Source of the DNA: Promethearchaeota archaeon
GTDB lineage: Archaea > Asgardarchaeota > Lokiarchaeia > Sigyniarchaeales > SOKP01
Direction: 5' to 3'
Assembly (NCBI GenBank): GCA_030599585.1
Contig: JAUVNS010000011.1
Span: forward strand, 96,001-160,000
DNA: 64,000 nucleotides
Shown: positions 32,646-56,049 of the stretch, in pieces
Numbering within the stretch: position 1 is the first letter of the stretch
Layout: the number at the start of each line of letters is the position of its first letter
Notes under the pieces: model-generated
Told to the model about the DNA's origin: nothing
Databases searched by the model: none
Seen by the model: only the letters and a program-made list of their open reading frames with translations
Made by a program: the position numbers and the translations under genes

Positions 32646-33839
32646 TTATATCCAATCTCCAGTTGATAGTTTTTCAGGTATATATTGATCTGTCAAAAAT
32701 TCAAATCCAAAAGTCGAGAGAGCTTGAATTTCCGCTTTTACTTTTAATTTTAGAGCTAATTTTAGGTCAGTTTCCCAAGCTTTATTTTTTTTGACAAAAT
32801 CTTCGTTTAACATCTCTTTAGTCCTCTTAATATCTGTTTGATTCATAGGAATTGTGCAATCGTTGGGAATTTTATATTTTTCTAAATCCCTAGTAAGTAC
32901 ACCTAAGAGTTTTATATCGGGAGTTGCTAAAAAAGGTGATTCGTAACTTAAACGTTTAGATCCTCGTAAGTAAACTGAATGAATGTAATGCCCATATGGG
33001 TCGCTATCAACTAAAGTAAAAACAGGCAACTGGAGTTCCTTACTAACCCTTCTTAGGAACATACGTGTAGCAATATCCGCAGCACCCTTTGCTGTTAATA
33101 TTATACAGGGATATTTTCTCCAAAATCTAGCTTCTGATAATCTTATCATTGCCGCGTCTTTTTCTAAAACTAAAATAAATTCTGCATCTGATTCAAGTAT
33201 TTCAATATTATCAAGCATTGGACTAATCGTCCAACCTCCACTTCCTAATCCTTCCAAATCAATTATATCATTCCTATCTCTAATTCTAAGGCGTCCAATG
33301 CATGATCCTTTAGCTGAAGCTACAATATGTGTTGAATTTCTAGTCGTATATAACATTGTAGCGACATCCTCAATACATTTGTCGCTATTCTTCTGATCTC
33401 CAAATAATTGAACTGATGCGTAAAATATTTCTCTTTTTGTGGCATGCATATCCTTGAGCAATAGTTCATTGACTTTCTCAAGTACTTTCATTAATCTTGT
33501 CATGTCAGCAACACTACCGAGCGAATGGAACTGTTTTTCCATGATCTGCTGTCCTAATAGTAGTAAATCATTCTCTTCGTCCCAGATAATATTTGCACTA
33601 GTTCTCGAAGGTAATTTAATCGAGGGTCTTCCATTTTCATAAATCATGTCTATTAAAGAATCCGTTAATTTGTAGATACGTTCTAAAGTTTGTTTTCTAT
33701 TTAAATTGTCAATTTTCACTGTATTTTCCGGTAGTTTTATTTCTTTTTTCTTTTCTTCTATACCTTTTTTCAAATACTCTTGAAAAAGCTTTTTGGCTGC
33801 TTTAAGATTCCATGTTTTACTTTCAGTTTTAATTGACAT
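32646..33839 (-). CDS. top6A: DNA topoisomerase VI subunit A
   Basis: TKREIFY catalytic Tyr, LEKDA, DSDPYG Toprim, KAEIQAL; ATG at 33839 preferred over GTG at 33848. Confidence 0.95.
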   Translation of the reverse strand: MSIKTESKTWNLKAAKKLFQEYLKKGIEEKKKEIKLPENTVKIDNLNRKQTLERIYKLTDSLIDMIYENGRPSIKLPSRTSANIIWDEENDLLLLGQQIMEKQFHSLGSVADMTRLMKVLEKVNELLLKDMHATKREIFYASVQLFGDQKNSDKCIEDVATMLYTTRNSTHIVASAKGSCIGRLRIRDRNDIIDLEGLGSGGWTISPMLDNIEILESDAEFILVLEKDAAMIRLSEARFWRKYPCIILTAKGAADIATRMFLRRVSKELQLPVFTLVDSDPYGHYIHSVYLRGSKRLSYESPFLATPDIKLLGVLTRDLEKYKIPNDCTIPMNQTDIKRTKEMLNEDFVKKNKAWETDLKLALKLKVKAEIQALSTFGFEFLTDQYIPEKLSTGDWI

Positions 33840-33849
33840 TATTATCACG

Positions 33850-36800
33850 CTATTTAGATTTCCAATGTTTTTTTCCCTTCTTGGTTTCTACCATTACCAA
33901 TCCCTTGCGCTCTAATTCCTTCAGTTTTATCTGTAAAAAACGAGCATCCATCATATCTTTTATTTTCATTTTAAATATTAAAGCTGTTATTGCTTGCCAA
34001 TCTTCAGATAATGCGTCTATTATTTTCTCTGTAGTAATTATTGGCAATTGAGTTTGAGTTAGCGCGGGTTTAGGCTGTTGAGCAGTAATTACTGGTTCTT
34101 TTTTAACCGGTTGTTGATGAATTATTTCACCCTTGGCAATTTGTAATTGTTTTCTTTTTTTGGCTATGGTTCCCGGTGGAACTGGTTCGATTTTTAATGG
34201 TGCCTTTGCTATTTTGTCCAAGGGTATCCTTTTTTCTGGTTTTCCTTTATCATAAAATTCTTGAATAAATTTAATAATTTCTGATTTTCGAGCTTTAGAT
34301 GGTAGAGAAATGTTCTTTTCCATACAATATTCTTTTAGTTGATTGATAGTCCAGTTAAGAAGAGTTCTTACACTAAGAAGCTCATCACTAGGTTTAATTT
34401 TTTCAGGAATGCTCTTTTCCTGAACACCCGTGTCTTCCCATTGAATCTCAACTTTTTTAGGTTCTAATTCAATAGGCTCTATCTTTTCAGGTTCGGATGG
34501 TTTCTTTTCTTTAATTTTAGGAGGCACTTTTACTCCAATTGCATTTCTCATCAAGTCTTCCAATTCCTTTTCTGAAATTTTCCCCTTATATTTTCCTTCT
34601 CCTTGTGATACGATATTATAGGCACTTTGAACGAATATTGGGATATATTTCTCAATTAAACCAGCTCTTTTCTCGCTCTTTCGAATATTCGCTCTACGAT
34701 TAAGATATACCCTCAAACGTCTTCCTATGGCCTCAAGACAAAATTTAATCTCTTTAAGTAAATCTTCGTCTTCAGCTAATGCGTTTTTCGATTGAGATTT
34801 AAACATCAAATGGACATAAGGCCCTGAAATATTTACGAGAAGTTTAATTGGACCTTTTGGTAGATTATTATCATACACATCTAATTTATAATTTTTCCAA
34901 TTCACAGATTGAACTGCTTTAGTGATAGCACAATCGGCACTATCTCTTAACTTAGGAGTTCTATTAACGAATCTTGAGAGAACATCCCTGGAACGTTTGG
35001 GAGTTTCAAGTTTCTTCGAATCGTTACAATACGCCAATGCAGCTTCAACAACATATGCTAATCCTTTGCCCGAAGTAGGTGGTCTTGTTTCTGCGCTTAC
35101 AAAATCATCATCTTTAGTGTAAATTTCGGTGAAGAAATCAAAAACATCGCGATAAGAATCTTTCTGAACTTCTGTAACAGAATTTAATTTTTTTTCAATT
35201 GTTCTCTGAAATTCTTCTGGTTCTAAATACTGGTCTTTAATATCAATACTAACGAGAATTCTGGAGTTGAAATTTTTAACATCTTCAGGTGTTAGTATAG
35301 TATCTTTTATTTTATTTTCGATGTGTTGTTGTTTGTCTTGATCTCTCTTCAATTCTTCTTGAAGAATATCATAAGACATTTTTACATTTTCAATAGGGGC
35401 ATCAAAATCATCAATATTCTCCGAGATTTTAAGTCCAATTTCTTTAATCAGCGTATTTTCTAATACAATATCTCCAACTGGAATCGCTGTATCTGTTGGT
35501 GGTGACATATATTTGATAGATTTAAAGGCGTGGAAAAGTGAGTTAAATTGGTCGTTAGTTAAATCAGAGGGTTTTACTTTTGAAATTTGAACTTCGTTGA
35601 TTAAATCTTCCAGTTCTGCACGATTATTTAATTTTTTAACCTCTATTAAGCCAGTATTATCTTTAAAAATCTTTTCTAAATCATTTTTAATTTTTTCTCT
35701 TTCTTGGAAAATTCTATCTACATCTTTTAGTAGATTACTAACTTCTTTTTCAATTTTTTTTATGTCTTTTTTTGTCTCGGATTTATCAATACGATTGCGG
35801 TGTTTTTTTATTTCTCTATATATTTTTTCTAAATCTTTATCAAAATTGTTATTTTTATCCATAGATTCCCAGTATTTAATCTTCAATTCTTCTGAATTAA
35901 TATTGTAGATAATCAATTTATCGCGCGGTTTTGTTGAACGTCCGTAAACCCTAGTTTCATACTTAAATAAGTATATTAAATCACTTCTCTTCACTAATTT
36001 GTTTATGAATCCATTTTTAAGTATCATTAGAGATAGTTTATCTTCTAAGTTTCTTTCTGCAATTTTCAAAATCTCTTTTGCTGTTTTTGAACTCAATCTC
36101 ACGAAATTATCCTGTAGAAAAGCGGATATCGTAAAATTTTCTGATTTTGTTAAGAGATCTTGTAAATCACCAATATTAGTTGATGATGGGTGAGGTTTAG
36201 CATATTTTGGTTGTTTTGGGAAACTTGAGACTAATCGTCTGTAAATCCATTCTTTTCCATATGGATCTATAAAAATAAGAGTTATGTGGGGATTCAATAA
36301 AGCGGTTTCTTTAATGTAGGTATCTACGAAACCACGAGTGTATTTTACATTTAAATAGTTCAATTTTATATATGTCCCATGTAAGAACGGGCTACTACAG
36401 TCTGTAGGACGAACTAAATATTTCTTTTCATTTTTAGAGGTTGTAAAAAATTCTGAAACAGTAGCATATATAGTATTTTTTGACTTTGATACTGCTACTA
36501 TTGGTTTCCCAGTTGTATTTTGGGCATCGCTAAATGCACTCGGGGCACCGAAACCCTGACTTCCACGGGTTTGCTTCAATTCAAGGCTTTTTGAAGAAGC
36601 TAGATACTTACCAAATTTCCGCATATCTCCTTTGTGCATGCCAATACCATTATCAAAAATTTCGAATGTATAACTCATAACATTTTTCTGGGATAATTCA
36701 GAAGTTAAAAAGGTAGCAGCTTCAGATTCTCTCAAGCGAATAATAACAATTGGTTCAAGATCTACAATGGGCTCTACAGGTTTTATGATTTCGTTCATAT

Positions 36801-37239
36801 CTTCAATTATTCTTTTTACTTCTTCTTCTACTTCGAGCTCTTCTTTATCGGCGATTTCTCCAGATTCGTCTTCCATATCGTTGATTGGATCTATTTCAGT
36901 GTTAGATGTTTCTGTAGGTGCGTGTCCGATTTCTTGCATTAGAGCAAATTTTGCTTCATTTGATAGAGGCTGATCAATTTCATCTTTTTTCGCTTCTTGA
37001 AGAATTGATAAATTTTCCAAAGTTAATTCTTGATCTAGAGAAAATTGAGTTCGTGAATCACCCTCTTTTAACTCCTTCCACTGAAATTCTTCAATAGCAT
37101 CTAACGCGTTATCTAGAAATTCAGAGGCGTATTGCTGATGTTTCCAATAACCAAACTCAAAACCCACTAATTGAGTCCGCTTTCTCATAAATTGTGCTAT
37201 CGTCCCTTGCTTTATCCTGCCTTCTTCATCAGAGGAAAT
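33850..37239 (-). CDS. top6B: DNA topoisomerase VI subunit B, enlarged by insertions, a HeH-like module and a C-terminal wH
   Basis: EFLDNALDA, DNGIG, RGSQGFG, PHP, RFVNRTP. Frame is open upstream of 37188 (ISSDEEGRIKQGTIAQF-MRKR); a probable ATT start at 37239 follows GGTG. Confidence 0.9.
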   Translation of the reverse strand: MSSDEEGRIKQGTIAQFMRKRTQLVGFEFGYWKHQQYASEFLDNALDAIEEFQWKELKEGDSRTQFSLDQELTLENLSILQEAKKDEIDQPLSNEAKFALMQEIGHAPTETSNTEIDPINDMEDESGEIADKEELEVEEEVKRIIEDMNEIIKPVEPIVDLEPIVIIRLRESEAATFLTSELSQKNVMSYTFEIFDNGIGMHKGDMRKFGKYLASSKSLELKQTRGSQGFGAPSAFSDAQNTTGKPIVAVSKSKNTIYATVSEFFTTSKNEKKYLVRPTDCSSPFLHGTYIKLNYLNVKYTRGFVDTYIKETALLNPHITLIFIDPYGKEWIYRRLVSSFPKQPKYAKPHPSSTNIGDLQDLLTKSENFTISAFLQDNFVRLSSKTAKEILKIAERNLEDKLSLMILKNGFINKLVKRSDLIYLFKYETRVYGRSTKPRDKLIIYNINSEELKIKYWESMDKNNNFDKDLEKIYREIKKHRNRIDKSETKKDIKKIEKEVSNLLKDVDRIFQEREKIKNDLEKIFKDNTGLIEVKKLNNRAELEDLINEVQISKVKPSDLTNDQFNSLFHAFKSIKYMSPPTDTAIPVGDIVLENTLIKEIGLKISENIDDFDAPIENVKMSYDILQEELKRDQDKQQHIENKIKDTILTPEDVKNFNSRILVSIDIKDQYLEPEEFQRTIEKKLNSVTEVQKDSYRDVFDFFTEIYTKDDDFVSAETRPPTSGKGLAYVVEAALAYCNDSKKLETPKRSRDVLSRFVNRTPKLRDSADCAITKAVQSVNWKNYKLDVYDNNLPKGPIKLLVNISGPYVHLMFKSQSKNALAEDEDLLKEIKFCLEAIGRRLRVYLNRRANIRKSEKRAGLIEKYIPIFVQSAYNIVSQGEGKYKGKISEKELEDLMRNAIGVKVPPKIKEKKPSEPEKIEPIELEPKKVEIQWEDTGVQEKSIPEKIKPSDELLSVRTLLNWTINQLKEYCMEKNISLPSKARKSEIIKFIQEFYDKGKPEKRIPLDKIAKAPLKIEPVPPGTIAKKRKQLQIAKGEIIHQQPVKKEPVITAQQPKPALTQTQLPIITTEKIIDALSEDWQAITALIFKMKIKDMMDARFLQIKLKELERKGLVMVETKKGKKHWKSK

Positions 37240-49646: not shown

Positions 49647-50519
49647 TTAAATTGTATCTTCTCCTACTCCTAATTGTGAAATCATCATCCTCTTGAGCTC
49701 TTCTTTGTTTTTAGGTAATCCAAACATATCCGCATATTTATCGGTTGTATTTAATTCTGCTGACCTTCCTTTTTTTACCGCCGTTATTAGATCGTTGTCC
49801 AAGAGGTATTTCACATGCTCGTAAGCGCCACTCCCTCTTAATTTAATAACGGTTGATTTTAAAATTGGCTGTTTCAGAGCAATTACTGTAAGTGTTCTTA
49901 AATAGCGCTCAGCAATAGCACCACCTTTAGCGAATTTGGAAACTGTTTCTGTAAGTTCCGGTCTTAGCTGCATTTGATATTTTTCTCCAATTTGGGCTAC
50001 AATCAATGCACCTTCACGGTCCAAATAGTCAAAAGCAACTACATTTACAAGTTCTTCGACTTCTTTTTTTGGGATTTCTAATTTAGTTGATAATTCTTCT
50101 ACATCCAGAGGTCTACCAGCCGCGTAAAGAGCACCCTCTATTAAATTTCTCCGTAGAATTTTTAATTGTAATTCTAATTCTTCCTTCGTGAGTTCTTTAG
50201 GTATATGGGATTCAACTATATCCGCTCCTATAACTTCGGTCTCTCGTTTGCTTAAGCTTTCTTCTGACGGGTCAAGACTTGATAAATTTTCTTCCTCAAT
50301 ACTTAATTCTTCTTCAATAAACTCTTGGCTATCTTCTTCATCAGAATCTTGTTTAAGATAATCTTCGATGGTTTCTTTGGTCTCTAATTCGATCTCAATA
50401 TCCTCTAAATTCCTTTCTTCTTGAGTAATTTCTTCGGCATCGGTCTCATCTAAAGGTTCTTCTTCATTCGTTTCGTCTTTGAATTGATTTTCCTGTTCTT
50501 TTTCATTATTTTCGTTCAG
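49647..50519 (-). CDS. scpB: SMC-Scp subunit ScpB with a ~115-aa acidic N-terminal extension
   Basis: Frame is open 165 codons upstream of the tracked ORF, through LIEGALYAAGRPLDVEEL, to CTG at 50519 after GGTGA; C-terminal TLTVIALKQP...RG...TTDKYADMFGL. Confidence 0.88.
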   Translation of the reverse strand: MNENNEKEQENQFKDETNEEEPLDETDAEEITQEERNLEDIEIELETKETIEDYLKQDSDEEDSQEFIEEELSIEEENLSSLDPSEESLSKRETEVIGADIVESHIPKELTKEELELQLKILRRNLIEGALYAAGRPLDVEELSTKLEIPKKEVEELVNVVAFDYLDREGALIVAQIGEKYQMQLRPELTETVSKFAKGGAIAERYLRTLTVIALKQPILKSTVIKLRGSGAYEHVKYLLDNDLITAVKKGRSAELNTTDKYADMFGLPKNKEELKRMMISQLGVGEDTI

Positions 50520-50548
50520 ATTCTATCACCAAAAATTTGGATTGTAAT

Positions 50549-51553
50549 TTAACTTTTTAAATTTATTGAGAAATCTTTAAAATCTTCGTCTTGAAATAGT
50601 TCTAACTTATTCCCTGTTGAGAGGAACATTAAAGCCAAAAACATGCGAACAAAAGCGAACTTCTTACCAATGTCGCTTTTTTCTTCTATGTTAATAATTT
50701 CTGCCATGTCATAAAAGGAGGTTTCTTTATCATCGAGGTTTATTTTAGTTTTTATTCTGTTAAACCAAGCGTTGTGTAACTCTTCCACAGTTTGCTCCTT
50801 CCCGCTAATGTGTTTCAAAAGTTCTTTTGGTAGTTGTGCTTTAGATTTTTTTTGAATTCGCTGTTCCTTTAATTCATCCCGCCTCATCCTTCGCCTTTTT
50901 AGTTTTTCTTTCTTCTGCATAGTCTCAATAATAGCAGATCTCATAGCGTCAAATAATTCGTCTTTAGTGGAGATTAACATTTTAGGCTGAATAGGTTGTG
51001 GTAAAGATTTGGGTATTGATCTACCGTGCCTTGCTCTAAATTGCGCCAATTCCTCCTTTTTTTGAATTTGTTCTTCGTCCCGTATTATGCTAGAGATTTT
51101 GTAATGATGTAATACTGCTGAAGTTTTAAGCGCGATTCCTGAAATTTTATAATTAATTAAATCTTCATGAAGCATGTTATTGAAGAATTTGTCAACTAAT
51201 GCTGCCAGATCGTAAAATGCAACATTTGATTCCTTAGCAACTTCGGGGTCTAGAAGGCTTGAAAAAGGTGGTTTATGCCAGAACTTTAACTCTAACTTTT
51301 CTTTATACAATAAAGCGGGGTCTTCTTCCTCGCCGGCGACTAACTCTTCTTCCAACACTTCTACATCCACGTTATCTTGAGTTCGATCTACAAATTCTGG
51401 ATGTGAAGCGATCTTTTCTATGAATTTAATAATTTCATTCTTTTTTGATTTAGACGGTATTTTTATGTTGTTTTTACTTGCAAATTCCCTTAATTTCTTT
51501 ACAGACCATTCACTGAAGTTGTATTTTATCTCTTCACTTTCATTTTCTGGAAC
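50549..51553 (-). CDS. scpA: Kleisin ScpA with N-terminal HeH/LEM-like module
   Basis: DLAALVDKF...ISGIALKTSAVL..K N-domain and FLALMFL...LELFQDEDF C-terminal wH; frame open 61 codons upstream of 51370 behind an AGGTG RBS. Exact start (GTT/ATC/ATA at 51553-51559) is uncertain. Confidence 0.82.
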   Translation of the reverse strand, partial: VPENESEEIKYNFSEWSVKKLREFASKNNIKIPSKSKKNEIIKFIEKIASHPEFVDRTQDNVDVEVLEEELVAGEEEDPALLYKEKLELKFWHKPPFSSLLDPEVAKESNVAFYDLAALVDKFFNNMLHEDLINYKISGIALKTSAVLHHYKISSIIRDEEQIQKKEELAQFRARHGRSIPKSLPQPIQPKMLISTKDELFDAMRSAIIETMQKKEKLKRRRMRRDELKEQRIQKKSKAQLPKELLKHISGKEQTVEELHNAWFNRIKTKINLDDKETSFYDMAEIINIEEKSDIGKKFAFVRMFLALMFLSTGNKLELFQDEDFKDFSINLKS

Positions 51554-51579
51554 GATTATACACCTGAAGCTTATAATTT

Positions 51580-54500
51580 TTAATTTTCTTCAATAGTAGG
51601 GGGTACATCCGGAAGTTCGAGTAACCTTTTTGCTTCTTCTTCTAAATCGACACTAAAAATGTCGGTGATACCGCTTTGTTGCATGGAGACACCGTATATG
51701 CGATCTGCGTTAACTATATTCTCTTCACGATGACTTATTACCAAAAATTGCGCTTGTCTGGCAAATTCTTTGATTACTACACTTACTCTATGAACATTGG
51801 GCCCATCTAATGCTGCATCTATCTCATCCATAATATAAAATGGCGCAGGATAAAATTCCTGAACAGCAAAAATAAATGACAAAGCAACGAGTGTTTTTTC
51901 TCCTCCGCTCAGTATTTCTAAACTGGAGATACGCTTCCCACGAGGTCTAGCTTCTATGCTACATCCACCTTCAAAAGGTTTATCTGGTCTGTCGAGAATC
52001 ATTTTTGCAGATCCCCCCGGTGAAAGCTTCTGAAATATGCGAGCAAACTCACGATTAATTTCGTGGTAAGCCTTCATGAATGTTCGAGTTTTTTCCAATT
52101 CGATTTTTTCAATAGCGTCGAGAATTGCTTTTCGTTCACGTTGTATTGTTTGCCTTCTCATATCTATTTCGTCAAATCTTTCTTTTACAGTATCATATTG
52201 CGTAATAGCTTTTAAGTTAACTGGTTCCAAAGCTTTTTTCTTGTTAGTAGCTGTAGAAATATCTGATTGTAACCCGGATTCTGAAAGCTCGTCAGTCACT
52301 ACCGGCAATGCGCCGTAATCCTTCGATCTCTGGTAAAGAGTTTCTATTTGATCTGTAGTAATAATCTTTTTTGATTCAAAATTGTTTAGTTTTGAATTTT
52401 GCATAGAAATATCAGAGCGTAGGTCGTTTATTACTTTCTGATAATTTTTTTGTTTTTGCCAGGATATATCTTTTCCTTGAATCTGTTTATTAATTTCTTC
52501 CTGTTTTACGTTCTTTTTGTCTTCTTCTTGTTTTAATTCAGTTTCAATGTTTTCAATGTCTTTTACTATTAATTCTATTTGTTTCTCAGTTTCTTTAATG
52601 TCTTGGTTAAGAGATATTATTTTTTGTTCTCGTTCTTTATTTTTATTTAATTCGTTTAATTTTGCTTGTATTTTTTGAAGATCTTTATTGAATTTATTTA
52701 ATTCTTTTTGAACTTTCTTTTGAGCTTCCAACTCTTTGTTTTTATCTTCTCTTAAAGCATCTATGACTAATTGAATTTCAGTGACTTTCTTTTGTACCTC
52801 ATCTACTTGAGTATTAAAACCCTCAACATCTAGAGTACAAGTTTTAATATTTGCTTTAGCTTCCAAGTTTTCCTTAGCTAGTTCTTCAATTGAATTGATA
52901 ACCATCATAACATTTTCAAGTGCTCTTAGGTTATCCATTGTACTTTCTAATTTTTTATTCTGATCACCAATGTGTGCCCTTAACTTTTCGGTATTCTCCC
53001 AAAACTTATTTTTTTCTAAAATATTAGAATCGATTTTTAATGTTAAAGCTTCTTGTTCTAAATTGAGATTTTTAATGTTTTCTTCAGTGTTTATTATGGT
53101 ATTTTTCTTATTTTCTATATTTGAATTTAATTCTTGGACATTTTTCTCAATATCAATAATCTTTTCATAAAAATTTTGTATTCCTTGCAATTCTTGAAGT
53201 CTTTTTTGCAGATCGTCTAATCCTTGTTGCTTTACTTCTATATTTTTCTTGATGGTAGAAACTTTATCCCAGTAATCCTCTTTGAGTTGTTTTAAATTGT
53301 TTATTTCTTCATTGAAATTTTCTTTTTGTTTTTCTCTTATTACATTATTCCTCTGTTTAACCTCAGCATCAGATTTTTCGATTTTTTCAAGTAATTCAGT
53401 GATTCTTTTATTAACTTTTTCTAACCTCTTATTAGTAACTGATAAATCGTCAGAATCATGTTTTTCTTGAGTATTTATCCGGGTTAAATCTTTCTCAATT
53501 TTGTTTAGATCTACATTTTGAGATGCAATATTTTCAGTAATCTCTTCAAGCTGTTTATACTGCTCTTGGGATTTTGACATGGTGAGTTTTCGCAATGATA
53601 AGTATACATTCTCAAGAATTTCCATTAAATCTTGCACAAAGCTATCAAATGTTGATGTAGATTGTTGAATCTCTACATCAGCAGTTTCCTTTACAGAATC
53701 AATTAACTGATCTATCGTGGTATCAACATTTTCAGTAAAAAGAGTTAATGTCTGAAGTATAGACTTGAGAGTTTCAGACACTTCAGCATCCTCTGGTTTC
53801 TGTTCTGCTTCTGCTTCAGCTTCAGAGCTTACGTCTTCAATCGTCGTCATAATATCAATAATGTCAAGGACAAATTGTTTAAAGTTGACCGCTGATGTAT
53901 CAATTGCCTCAGCGTTAGACTGTTGAATGTTACTCTTGATAGATTCAACGGATATATTGATATTCTGAGTTAGCATGTTCAGTATTTGGAGGATTCCGGT
54001 TATATCTTCAGTATTTCTTTCGTATTCTTTTTCTGTATTTTCTATTTTAGCTAACAAATTATTTTTCTCAGTGGTTAGCTCTCCTAACCGTCTTTGAATA
54101 TTATCTTTTTTTTTATTAAGCCCTTCTGATTCAGAGCTAATTTTAGTTAAATTTGCGTTCAGAGTTGACGATTTTAATTCTAAATCTTGTTTTTCTCTCT
54201 CAAGATTTGTCAATTCTTTTTTTAATAGATTTGACCTCGTATTAATATTATCAATTTTAGTTTTGTTATCATTAATTTCTGATTCAATAGAATCTTGTTT
54301 CATTAACAATAATTCTAAATCTTGTTCATTTTTTCTATAAATAGAATCTTCATCTTTTAATTGTTGTCGATAACTGTTTAATTCGTTAGTTAGCGTGTCT
54401 TTTTCCTTTAAAAGCTCTTTTAATGCCTCTTCTGTGTCTTTCCCTTTACTTAATTCTTTGATTTTTTCTTCAGTTTTAATTTTATCTGAGTTCAATGTCT

Positions 54501-56049
54501 CTATCCTATCGGTGTTCATCTTAATCTCTGTAGTTAGTGACGATAACATAGATTTAAAATCTGTTGCCTTTGAATTAAGTTTGTTCTTATCTTCTTGTAG
54601 GGTTATAATAATTTTCTCTAGATCTTGTTGATTTTCGTTCTCTTTTGAGATTTTTATATTCAAGTCATTAATTTCTTTTCTTGTGGCTTCAGCTTCATTT
54701 TTTGTGTTGGCTATCGCATCTTCAATGCTTTCTGATTCTCCTTTTAATTTGCTAAGATCTAGTTCTAATTTCTGTTTTTTTCCTTCGTTTTTTTTAATAT
54801 TTTCTTTCAGAATTTTAATTTGAGCTTTATTCGATGAAATATTTTGCTTTATAATGGAGATTTCTCCATTAAATCCTGTTTTTACATCGCTTTGATCTTT
54901 AATTTTTGCATCAATATCAGCTTGTTTTTGATGTTTACTTTCTATTTCTGCTTTTGCTGCTTCAATCTGGCTCTCTGTATCTGCTACAACCTTCCTTTCT
55001 GATTCAATTAAAGAATCAAATGTTTGATCTTCATCAAGAACCATCTGTAATTTTTCCAATGTATTAATTTCTTGAGAAATTTTTTCAACTGACTTATTTG
55101 CGAGGGTTAAAGATGTTTGATTTGAAGATTGTTGTGTTTTAAGATGAGTAATTTTTTCAGTGATTATTTCCCTTTCTTTTTCTTTTTCAGTTATGGTTTT
55201 TTGAATATTTTCCATAACCAATGATTCTTGTTTTATAATGTCATCCTGTCTTGTTAATTTTTCTTTTAACTCTTCTAAAATTGTATTAGATTCTTCAATA
55301 CTTTTTTCTAGATCATTTTCTTCCTTCCTTAATTTCTCAATCTTTAATGCTATCAATTGAGCGTTGTATAAGTCGATTTGTTCATCTAACTCTTTCCATG
55401 CCAAAGCATCATTCTTTTCCTTTTCTACTTTCTTTAATTGAGAAGAAACTTCTTTGAAAATTGCTTCAAATTGGCCTAGATCTCTTTCAGCCTTCTCTAA
55501 TTCCTTCATAGTTCCATCTTTCATCTCATCGTATTTCTGTAGGCCAATAAGTTCTTCTATAAATATTCTACGGGCTACCGGGTTCATGTGAGTTAATTCT
55601 ACTATTTTCCCTTGCAGAACGAATTGATTGCTTCCATCAGGATCTACATTTGCTGCTGCAAGAGCATTAAGAATTTGAGTTCTAGTGGATTTTTTACCGT
55701 TCATCTTATAACCTCCACCCCCACCTCGTTGAATTGTTCGAGTAACTTCAAATGTTTCTGTTCCACCTGGAAAGATTTCCTCTGAGTTATCGAAATATAA
55801 TGTAACCGAAGCTCTATTTGAAGGGTTTTTTCCTCGGGATCCGGCAAAAATCAAATCTTCAAGGCTCTTAGCTCTCATAGTTTTTTTGCTTAGCCTACCT
55901 AGAGCAAACGTTAAAGCGTCAATAATATTAGATTTTCCTGCACCATTTGGGCCTACTATACATGTAAAACCACTCGAAAGTCTAAGAGTAACAGTTCTGT
56001 CACCAAATGATTTAAATCCGGTCATAGAAATTTTTTTGATGTAAGTCAA
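51580..56049 (-). CDS. smc: SMC ATPase with elongated arms and a non-canonical central domain
   Basis: GPNGAGKS, FVLQG, LSGGEK, IMDEIDAALD, SH loop; directly upstream of scpA and scpB. Confidence 0.93.
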   Translation of the reverse strand: MTYIKKISMTGFKSFGDRTVTLRLSSGFTCIVGPNGAGKSNIIDALTFALGRLSKKTMRAKSLEDLIFAGSRGKNPSNRASVTLYFDNSEEIFPGGTETFEVTRTIQRGGGGGYKMNGKKSTRTQILNALAAANVDPDGSNQFVLQGKIVELTHMNPVARRIFIEELIGLQKYDEMKDGTMKELEKAERDLGQFEAIFKEVSSQLKKVEKEKNDALAWKELDEQIDLYNAQLIALKIEKLRKEENDLEKSIEESNTILEELKEKLTRQDDIIKQESLVMENIQKTITEKEKEREIITEKITHLKTQQSSNQTSLTLANKSVEKISQEINTLEKLQMVLDEDQTFDSLIESERKVVADTESQIEAAKAEIESKHQKQADIDAKIKDQSDVKTGFNGEISIIKQNISSNKAQIKILKENIKKNEGKKQKLELDLSKLKGESESIEDAIANTKNEAEATRKEINDLNIKISKENENQQDLEKIIITLQEDKNKLNSKATDFKSMLSSLTTEIKMNTDRIETLNSDKIKTEEKIKELSKGKDTEEALKELLKEKDTLTNELNSYRQQLKDEDSIYRKNEQDLELLLMKQDSIESEINDNKTKIDNINTRSNLLKKELTNLEREKQDLELKSSTLNANLTKISSESEGLNKKKDNIQRRLGELTTEKNNLLAKIENTEKEYERNTEDITGILQILNMLTQNINISVESIKSNIQQSNAEAIDTSAVNFKQFVLDIIDIMTTIEDVSSEAEAEAEQKPEDAEVSETLKSILQTLTLFTENVDTTIDQLIDSVKETADVEIQQSTSTFDSFVQDLMEILENVYLSLRKLTMSKSQEQYKQLEEITENIASQNVDLNKIEKDLTRINTQEKHDSDDLSVTNKRLEKVNKRITELLEKIEKSDAEVKQRNNVIREKQKENFNEEINNLKQLKEDYWDKVSTIKKNIEVKQQGLDDLQKRLQELQGIQNFYEKIIDIEKNVQELNSNIENKKNTIINTEENIKNLNLEQEALTLKIDSNILEKNKFWENTEKLRAHIGDQNKKLESTMDNLRALENVMMVINSIEELAKENLEAKANIKTCTLDVEGFNTQVDEVQKKVTEIQLVIDALREDKNKELEAQKKVQKELNKFNKDLQKIQAKLNELNKNKEREQKIISLNQDIKETEKQIELIVKDIENIETELKQEEDKKNVKQEEINKQIQGKDISWQKQKNYQKVINDLRSDISMQNSKLNNFESKKIITTDQIETLYQRSKDYGALPVVTDELSESGLQSDISTATNKKKALEPVNLKAITQYDTVKERFDEIDMRRQTIQRERKAILDAIEKIELEKTRTFMKAYHEINREFARIFQKLSPGGSAKMILDRPDKPFEGGCSIEARPRGKRISSLEILSGGEKTLVALSFIFAVQEFYPAPFYIMDEIDAALDGPNVHRVSVVIKEFARQAQFLVISHREENIVNADRIYGVSMQQSGITDIFSVDLEEEAKRLLELPDVPPTIEEN

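Follow-up and report, generated by a model that had tools for sequence, protein, structure and literature searches.

The locus studied here raises the question of why two chromosome machines, a type II topoisomerase and an SMC complex, carry the same small domain. It lies in a 64,000-nucleotide stretch of a Promethearchaeota archaeon genome of the Lokiarchaeia (assembly GCA_030599585.1, contig JAUVNS010000011.1, positions 96,001 to 160,000; hereafter the window), in which the predicted topoisomerase VI subunit B (Top6B) and the predicted kleisin ScpA have a peptide in common. The two peptides are probably independent copies of a mobile domain of ~35 residues from the SAP/HeH/Rho_N clan (HeH, helix-extension-helix), which, by analogy with related domains, would serve as a generic DNA tether of low specificity.

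A Module Common to Top6B and ScpA

The Top6B peptide is the exact minus-strand translation of window positions 34255-34362 and covers approximately residues 943-978 of an open reading frame (ORF) of 1112 amino acids. The second peptide is encoded at 51410-51517, also on the minus strand, in a frame flanked by smc (51580-56049) and scpB (49647-50522). As an earlier, sequence-only reading of this DNA had reported, the two align without gaps over 36 residues (15/36 identical); BLASTP of whole Top6B against whole ScpA gives E 1e-7, for the module stretch alone. A hidden Markov model (HMM) made from the two copies was run against the 4.85-Mb genome (52 contigs, 32.6% GC) and retrieved four further ORFs, with E values of 1e-16 to 4e-4, and the match is far beyond chance because of this retrieval. 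We regard the two peptides as homologous, both being a predicted helix-extension-helix domain fused to its host. Iteration of the HMM in the source genome converged on 7 copies in 6 ORFs, Top6B and ScpA included.

The sequence-only reading had explained the match by a tag added to both machines for dedicated co-targeting: the module would dock the SMC kleisin and Topo VI on one chromosomal or membrane ligand, coupling loop extrusion to decatenation. Several observations are in keeping with this. Both source-genome copies hold the string PSK-x-[KR]-K-x-EIIKFI, the two genes lie ~16-28 kb apart in conserved synteny, and both fusions are conserved across most of one family. However, the EIIKFI identity is particular to the source genome, and the string diverges in the orthologues, which have EIIKLI or DIIKLL in ScpA and EIIRFI or DIIKII in Top6B. 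In a tree of 49 modules, each copy falls in a cluster with its orthologues on the same kind of host. Mean core identity is 0.40 between the Top6B and ScpA copies, and that of the Top6B copies is 0.42 to the gelsolin class, 0.47 to the GIFT-like class, and 0.45 to the NOV_C class. The Top6B and ScpA copies are thus no special pair and not each other's closest relatives, which speaks against co-targeting.

Other Carriers of the Module

The remaining carriers in the source genome are a gelsolin-repeat protein with two copies, an IFT52-GIFT/ABC_transp_aux-like protein, and two NOV_C (DUF3883) nuclease-like proteins (Table 1). The two NOV_C/DUF3883 proteins are near-identical, and one of them (contig C49) runs off the end of its contig; given an estimated contamination of 8.9%, this copy could stem from strain heterogeneity rather than be a true paralogue.

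In public data, the module profile was searched against 1.84 billion representative proteins at E<=1e-3 and matched 1002 representative clusters, often with 2-6 module copies per protein. The protein search was dominated by tandem-HeH gelsolins of ~376 amino acids, and the diversity of architectures was taken from the representative library combined with Pfam. Among 91 of the best public matches, Pfam recognized Rho_N in 67, SAP in 55, and HeH in 53, and the partner domains included Phage_Mu_F, ADP-ribosyltransferase, Slx4, B-family DNA polymerase, SNF2 helicase, protein kinase, NOV_C, and Topo-VIb_trans. The module is promiscuous across host proteins. Its presence on many unrelated proteins, here and publicly, goes largely against a tag reserved for the two chromosome machines.

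Proteins of ~375-400 amino acids in which a gelsolin repeat is joined to two SAP/HeH modules at the C-terminus occur in the source genome (L001) and in many relatives (L009, L010, L012, L015, L017, L019), and a shorter gelsolin class of 298-341 amino acids has one module. The tandem-HeH gelsolin proteins are very abundant in metagenomes (>100 clusters of ~376 amino acids). This pairing of an actin regulator with SAP-type modules recalls the eukaryotic MRTF/myocardin proteins.

Fold and Family of the Module

An AlphaFold2 (AF2) model of the module, built on the 49-module alignment A3, consists of a helix at residues 8-17, a 10-residue extended loop, and a helix at residues 28-39, with a mean predicted local distance difference test (pLDDT) score of 88.7. 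The model was compared with 48,161 PDB chains using VIA-align. The matches were the C-terminus of T4 endonuclease VII (Z 6.3), the Rho N-terminus 1a62 (Z 6.0, with a root-mean-square deviation of 1.5 Å over 40 residues), the SAP-like domains of MANF/CDNF (Z 5.2-6.2), the SAP domain of Hcc-1 (Z 5.8), and the LEM domain of emerin (Z 5.5-5.6); the SAP domains of Tho1, Ku70, PIAS1, and MKL1 stood lower in the list. These clan matches span 37-40 of the 40 module residues. Foldseek, run with the same 40-residue model, ranked the same group, with no match at E<=0.001.

Against Pfam, the window copies gave sub-threshold matches, to Rho_N (14.7 bits) and HeH (14.1 bits) for Top6B and to Ish1 (23.0 bits) and Rho_N (17.5 bits) for ScpA. 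The paralogous copies on the gelsolin protein exceed the gathering scores of all four families of the clan, namely, Ish1 (34.4 bits), SAP (32.4 bits), HeH (29.6 bits), and Rho_N (25.3 bits), and homologues in the databases bear Ish1/SAP/HeH/Rho_N-clan families as precomputed matches. A search of PDB sequences with profile A3 gave no significant match over the whole module, the hits being R2D2 (E 3e-4, for half of the profile only), FluMu gp35 (E 0.15), and the Tho1 SAP domain (E 0.9); because of this, the fold assignment rests on structure prediction and Pfam. The LEM model PF03020 found a sole match in the whole genome, on contig C9 (E 0.8, 12.4 bits), and none on the modules.

Through transitive homology and the modeled fold, we assign the module to the SAP/HeH/Rho_N/Ish1 helix-extension-helix clan and exclude it from the LEM family sensu stricto. 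The fold proposed by the sequence-only reading, which had named LEM and HeH together, is borne out at the level of the clan, and its LEM part is not. The first helix is conserved as W-T-V-x2-L-[KR]-x-[YF]-C, with a hydrophobic and Cys/aromatic face, and the modules are net basic, with mean charges of +1.5 to +7.

The ScpA Gene and Translation of Its Module

Pfam SMC_ScpA and the NCBIfam models did not match the window kleisin (stop-to-stop frame 50549-51589, minus strand). A profile of its orthologues (alignment A4) matched the ScpA N-domain 6ivh with E 2.4e-4 and, weakly, the C-terminal winged-helix domains of Scc1/ScpA (E 0.04-0.2). We identify the ORF between smc and scpB as the predicted ScpA kleisin. 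It is only via this profile of Lokiarchaeial orthologues that the window kleisin reaches solved ScpA structures.

The frame has no ATG, GTG, or TTG ahead of the module; the first such codon is a GTG at 51370, downstream of it. The ORF listing of the window starts the gene at this GTG, as gene callers would, and the ScpA copy might on that account be taken for a relic that is not translated or for a frame open by chance, with the module really on Top6B alone. The orthologues argue strongly against this. Among the ScpA genes of the genus, 15 are assembled at the 5' end, and the module is in frame in every one of them; the ratio of nonsynonymous to synonymous substitution rates (dN/dS) over the module is ~0.13 among orthologues, the mark of purifying selection, with dS saturated in most pairs. 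A canonical start stands just upstream of the module in several genomes, as ATG in genera g11 and g15 and in G003 of the own genus and as GTG in genus g10. In the remaining orthologues, from the own genus, g13, and g19, a Shine-Dalgarno-like GGTG(A) is followed 7 nt on by a near-cognate codon of the form RTH (GTT, ATT, ATC, ATA, or GTA), and three of the frames open only at the near-cognate codon. We consider the chance that the ScpA copy is such a relic to be negligible.

In the source genome, the GGTG lies at 51564-51561 (minus strand), followed by ATC at 51556-51554 and GTT at 51553-51551, the GTT being the codon at the 7-nt distance. A start of scpA at one of these two near-cognate codons is supported by the comparison of orthologues, as is the predicted translation of the module. 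The N-terminus bearing the HeH is missed by ordinary gene calling because the start codon is non-canonical. The orthologues with this near-cognate arrangement are L035-L046, L081, and L083. A homopolymer frameshift after an out-of-frame ATG near 51543 was also considered as the start and was rejected, since orthologues lack that ATG and have the conserved GGTG and near-cognate codon.

The Top6B Gene and Its C-Terminal Tail

The ORF at 33850-37188 is identified as the predicted topoisomerase VI subunit B by NCBIfam PRK04184 (309.6 bits, cutoff 274), by Pfam Topo-VIb_trans (5e-28), and by the adjoining Top6A. Its tail was modeled with AF2 on alignment A5. Along the modeled tail, the long transducer helices lead into disorder at tail residues 95-141; next come the HeH module (146-187; pLDDT ~80-86), a second disordered region (189-254), and a terminal H-H-H-beta-beta domain (259-317; pLDDT ~90). 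Foldseek placed DNA binders of the winged-helix type, Sso10a-2, ArsR/SmtB regulators, and Z-alpha, on top for this last domain (probability ~1.0, E 0.04-0.3). The terminal winged helix, of ~60 residues, is conserved order-wide and has no Pfam match. A C-terminal domain has been described for Asgard TopoVIB by Brinkmeier et al. 2022 (PMC9665070), where the HeH is unmentioned.

Table 1. Genes, domains, and module copies in the window and elsewhere in the source genome. Positions are those of the window unless a contig is named; aa, amino acids.
Feature	Position	Strand	Evidence or remark
Top6A gene	32646..33848	-	Pfam TOP6A-Spo11_Toprim 2.6e-58, TP6A_N 3.4e-17
Top6B gene	33850..37188	-	1112 aa from first ATG, frame open further upstream; Top6A directly downstream
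Top6B C-terminal winged-helix domain (predicted)	33856..34032	-	A5 conservation; AF2 H-H-H-beta-beta; Foldseek
Second disordered linker of Top6B, ~aa 983-1048	34045..34242	-	AF2 pLDDT <50 over most of tail residues 189-254
Top6B HeH/SAP-type module, core W946-Q977 (34258-34353)	34255..34362	-	HMM; alignment; AF2; sub-threshold Rho_N and HeH at aa 947-975
Disordered P/K/E-rich linker, last transducer helices to HeH, ~aa 889-935	34384..34524	-	AF2 pLDDT <50, tail residues 95-141
ScpB gene (open frame), downstream of scpA	49647..50522	-	Pfam SMC_ScpB 2.3e-33; TIGR00281 93.9 bits (cutoff 89.2)
ScpA (kleisin) gene with 5' extension	50549..51556	-	Stop-to-stop frame 50549-51589; A4 profile; smc/scpB neighbours; start-codon comparison
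ScpA N-terminal HeH/SAP-type module, core W28-E59 of open frame (51413-51508)	51410..51517	-	HMM; alignment; sub-threshold Ish1 and Rho_N
Smc gene, upstream of scpA in same operon	51580..56049	-	Pfam SMC_N 4.4e-42
Gelsolin-repeat protein, two C-terminal copies	C22:132912-134117		HMM iteration
IFT52-GIFT/ABC_transp_aux-like protein	C22:213552-214841		HMM iteration
NOV_C (DUF3883) nuclease-like protein	C12:10770-12353		HMM iteration; L003 and L004 are this protein and its paralogue
NOV_C paralogue	C49:1-1155		HMM iteration
Distant Rho_N-type HeH	C40:219500-223000 (L072:1079-1996)	-	On protein with SWIM-like CxC...CxH motif
Distant Rho_N-type HeH	C15 (L073:1671-2147)	+	On 158-aa protein

Distribution, Probable Loss, and Replacement

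Of 81 genomes sampled from the family, 76 contain the module subfamily, at 1-7 copies per genome, and they cover 12 of the 13 genera sampled. The ScpA fusion was verified in genera g1, g10, g11, g13, g15, and g19 and the Top6B fusion in g1, g13, and g19. A restriction of the fusions to the genus was considered and was overturned by the family-level search and the checks in g10, g11, g13, g15, and g19. A later gain on Top6B than on ScpA inside the genus was likewise considered and dropped.

Within the own genus, Top6B carries the HeH in G000 and in 12 of the 18 relatives first sampled, and the gene of G013 is cut by a contig end. The Top6B tail is shorter and devoid of the HeH in 5/18 relatives (G003, G009, G012, G017, and G018). 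ScpA-HeH is retained in four of these five genomes, and the G009 assembly yielded no scpA. The simpler reading of the five HeH-less Top6B proteins would be secondary loss in a subclade.

Other elements are found where the HeH is missing. The subfamily is absent from genus g16 (0/5 genomes, three of them 94-100% complete), where a C2HC zinc finger (CPYC ... H-K-C) takes the HeH position at the ScpA N-terminus (L089-L091) and Top6B has a P/K-rich linker. In eight genera from three other families of the order, nine ScpA orthologues have K/S/T-rich, histone-H1-like basic N-terminal tails; the 12 Top6B orthologues of those families lack the HeH, and the complete C-termini among them have basic linkers and the same C-terminal domain. 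The basic ScpA tails (L051-L059) are of low complexity, reach up to ~150 residues, and are followed by the same acidic linker. It looks as if the HeH has been gained, lost, or swapped independently on different hosts.

For a dedicated co-targeting tag, both the uncoupled presence on the two machines and the unrelated basic tails or zinc finger at the same positions in sister lineages are adverse, as are the other carriers and the tree described above. We therefore abandon this part of the sequence-only reading as highly improbable. Top6B and ScpA could all the same meet on DNA through the module, but nothing in the data points to a specific ligand shared by the two. There is also a likeness to the coupling of MukB with Topo IV and of condensin with Topo II, in that here, too, the SMC machine and the topoisomerase of one organism have a potential DNA-recruiting feature in common. 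The differences are that those systems work by direct, specific protein contacts, whereas here the domain is generic, has unrelated carriers, and shows uncoupled gains and losses.

Possible Role of the Module

In the generic-tether reading, which we prefer, one family of Lokiarchaeia would have appended a mobile helix-extension-helix domain to several proteins. The Top6B copy would be a bead on a string between disordered linkers of ~45-65 residues, before the conserved C-terminal winged helix, and the ScpA copy would sit at the extreme N-terminus, tied through an acidic linker to the domain that binds the SMC neck. From the SAP domains of Ku70, Tho1, and PIAS, the Rho N-terminus, and the HEH tail found on Streptomyces Ku, we infer DNA binding by analogy, with the module acting as an auxiliary nucleic-acid (DNA) tether that would increase the local concentration of each machine on the chromosome or prolong its stay there. 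We favor this reading because the domain is small and net basic, is placed on long linkers, is interchangeable with lysine-rich tails or a zinc finger, and is found on several DNA-related proteins. In Ku, SAP/HEH tails raise DNA binding and loading (PMC11936186).

Several points weigh against a DNA tether of this clan. The structural comparison yields modest Z scores (5-6), which is no surprise for a domain of 40 residues, and neither window copy alone attains a Pfam gathering score. The Top6B copies are weakly basic, with one of them net negative. Moreover, HeH-clan domains can be protein-binding, as in the LEM-BAF and MANF SAP-BiP pairs, both of which are among the structural matches, and the gelsolin-domain and GIFT-like hosts do not obviously call for a DNA tether.

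The gelsolin and GIFT-like hosts would be easier to accommodate if the modules were protein-protein adaptors that bind a common abundant Lokiarchaeial protein, for example, a chromatin protein, with DNA not the direct ligand. The high rank of LEM and of the MANF/CDNF SAP-like domains in the structural comparison, together with the conserved hydrophobic and Cys/aromatic face of the first helix (W-T-V-x2-L-K-x-[YF]-C), would suit such adaptors. On the other side, the modules escape the strict LEM model, no candidate partner was identified, and the lysine-rich tails and zinc finger that serve as substitutes in sister lineages point to nucleic acid. We judge a protein adaptor to be unlikely and retain the generic DNA tether.

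Comparison with Known Domains

The closest counterparts among eukaryotic domains are the SAP domains (PF02037) of the Ku70 C-terminus, Tho1, PIAS1, Hcc-1/SARNP, and SLX4, which are likewise folds of ~35 residues, net basic, on flexible linkers, and attached to hosts engaged in DNA transactions. The structural Z scores to them are 4.3-5.8, and the paralogous copies exceed the SAP gathering score. In contrast to these domains, the module is attached here to an archaeal kleisin and to Top6B, the loop glycine of SAP is replaced by a loop of the P-S-K/S-Y-R-K type, and the two window copies themselves fall below the SAP threshold. The prokaryotic HeH/Rho_N domains (1a62 and the Streptomyces Ku HEH tail; PF07498, PF12949, and PF10281) include the families with the best Pfam affinities of the window copies, Rho_N, HeH, and Ish1, and are similarly promiscuous, being distributed over phage and DNA-processing proteins. 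The module differs from them as a lineage-specific subfamily, with its W-T-V-x2-L-[KR]-x-[YF]-C first helix, that is expanded in one Lokiarchaeial family. With the LEM domains of emerin, LAP2, and MAN1 (PF03020), which bind BAF, the likeness is in the clan-level fold, and the difference is the lack of a match of the modules to the LEM model; nothing in the analysis points to a BAF-like partner. Our literature search found no description of an HeH/SAP domain on Asgard ScpA or Top6B. The domain class is well known, and its presence here reveals no new mechanism by itself.

A more far-reaching proposal is that the HeH subfamily recognizes one specific ligand on the chromosome, be it a DNA structure or a protein of the chromatin, and so gathers condensin, Topo VI, the nuclease-like protein, and even the actin-regulating gelsolins at common sites. 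We regard it as a long shot, somewhat less probable than the protein adaptor. If true, it would mean that the closest relatives of eukaryotes have a primitive code for docking on chromatin, a forerunner of the tethering to chromatin by SAP and LEM domains.

For the family itself, the analysis corrects the annotation of the Lokiarchaeial kleisin, in which ~60 N-terminal residues that include a predicted folded domain have been missed. The chromosome machines of Asgard archaea appear to bear interchangeable small modules (HeH, zinc finger, lysine-rich tails, and winged helix) on long flexible linkers, and in this they may be likened to the eukaryotic chromosomal proteins with SAP domains.

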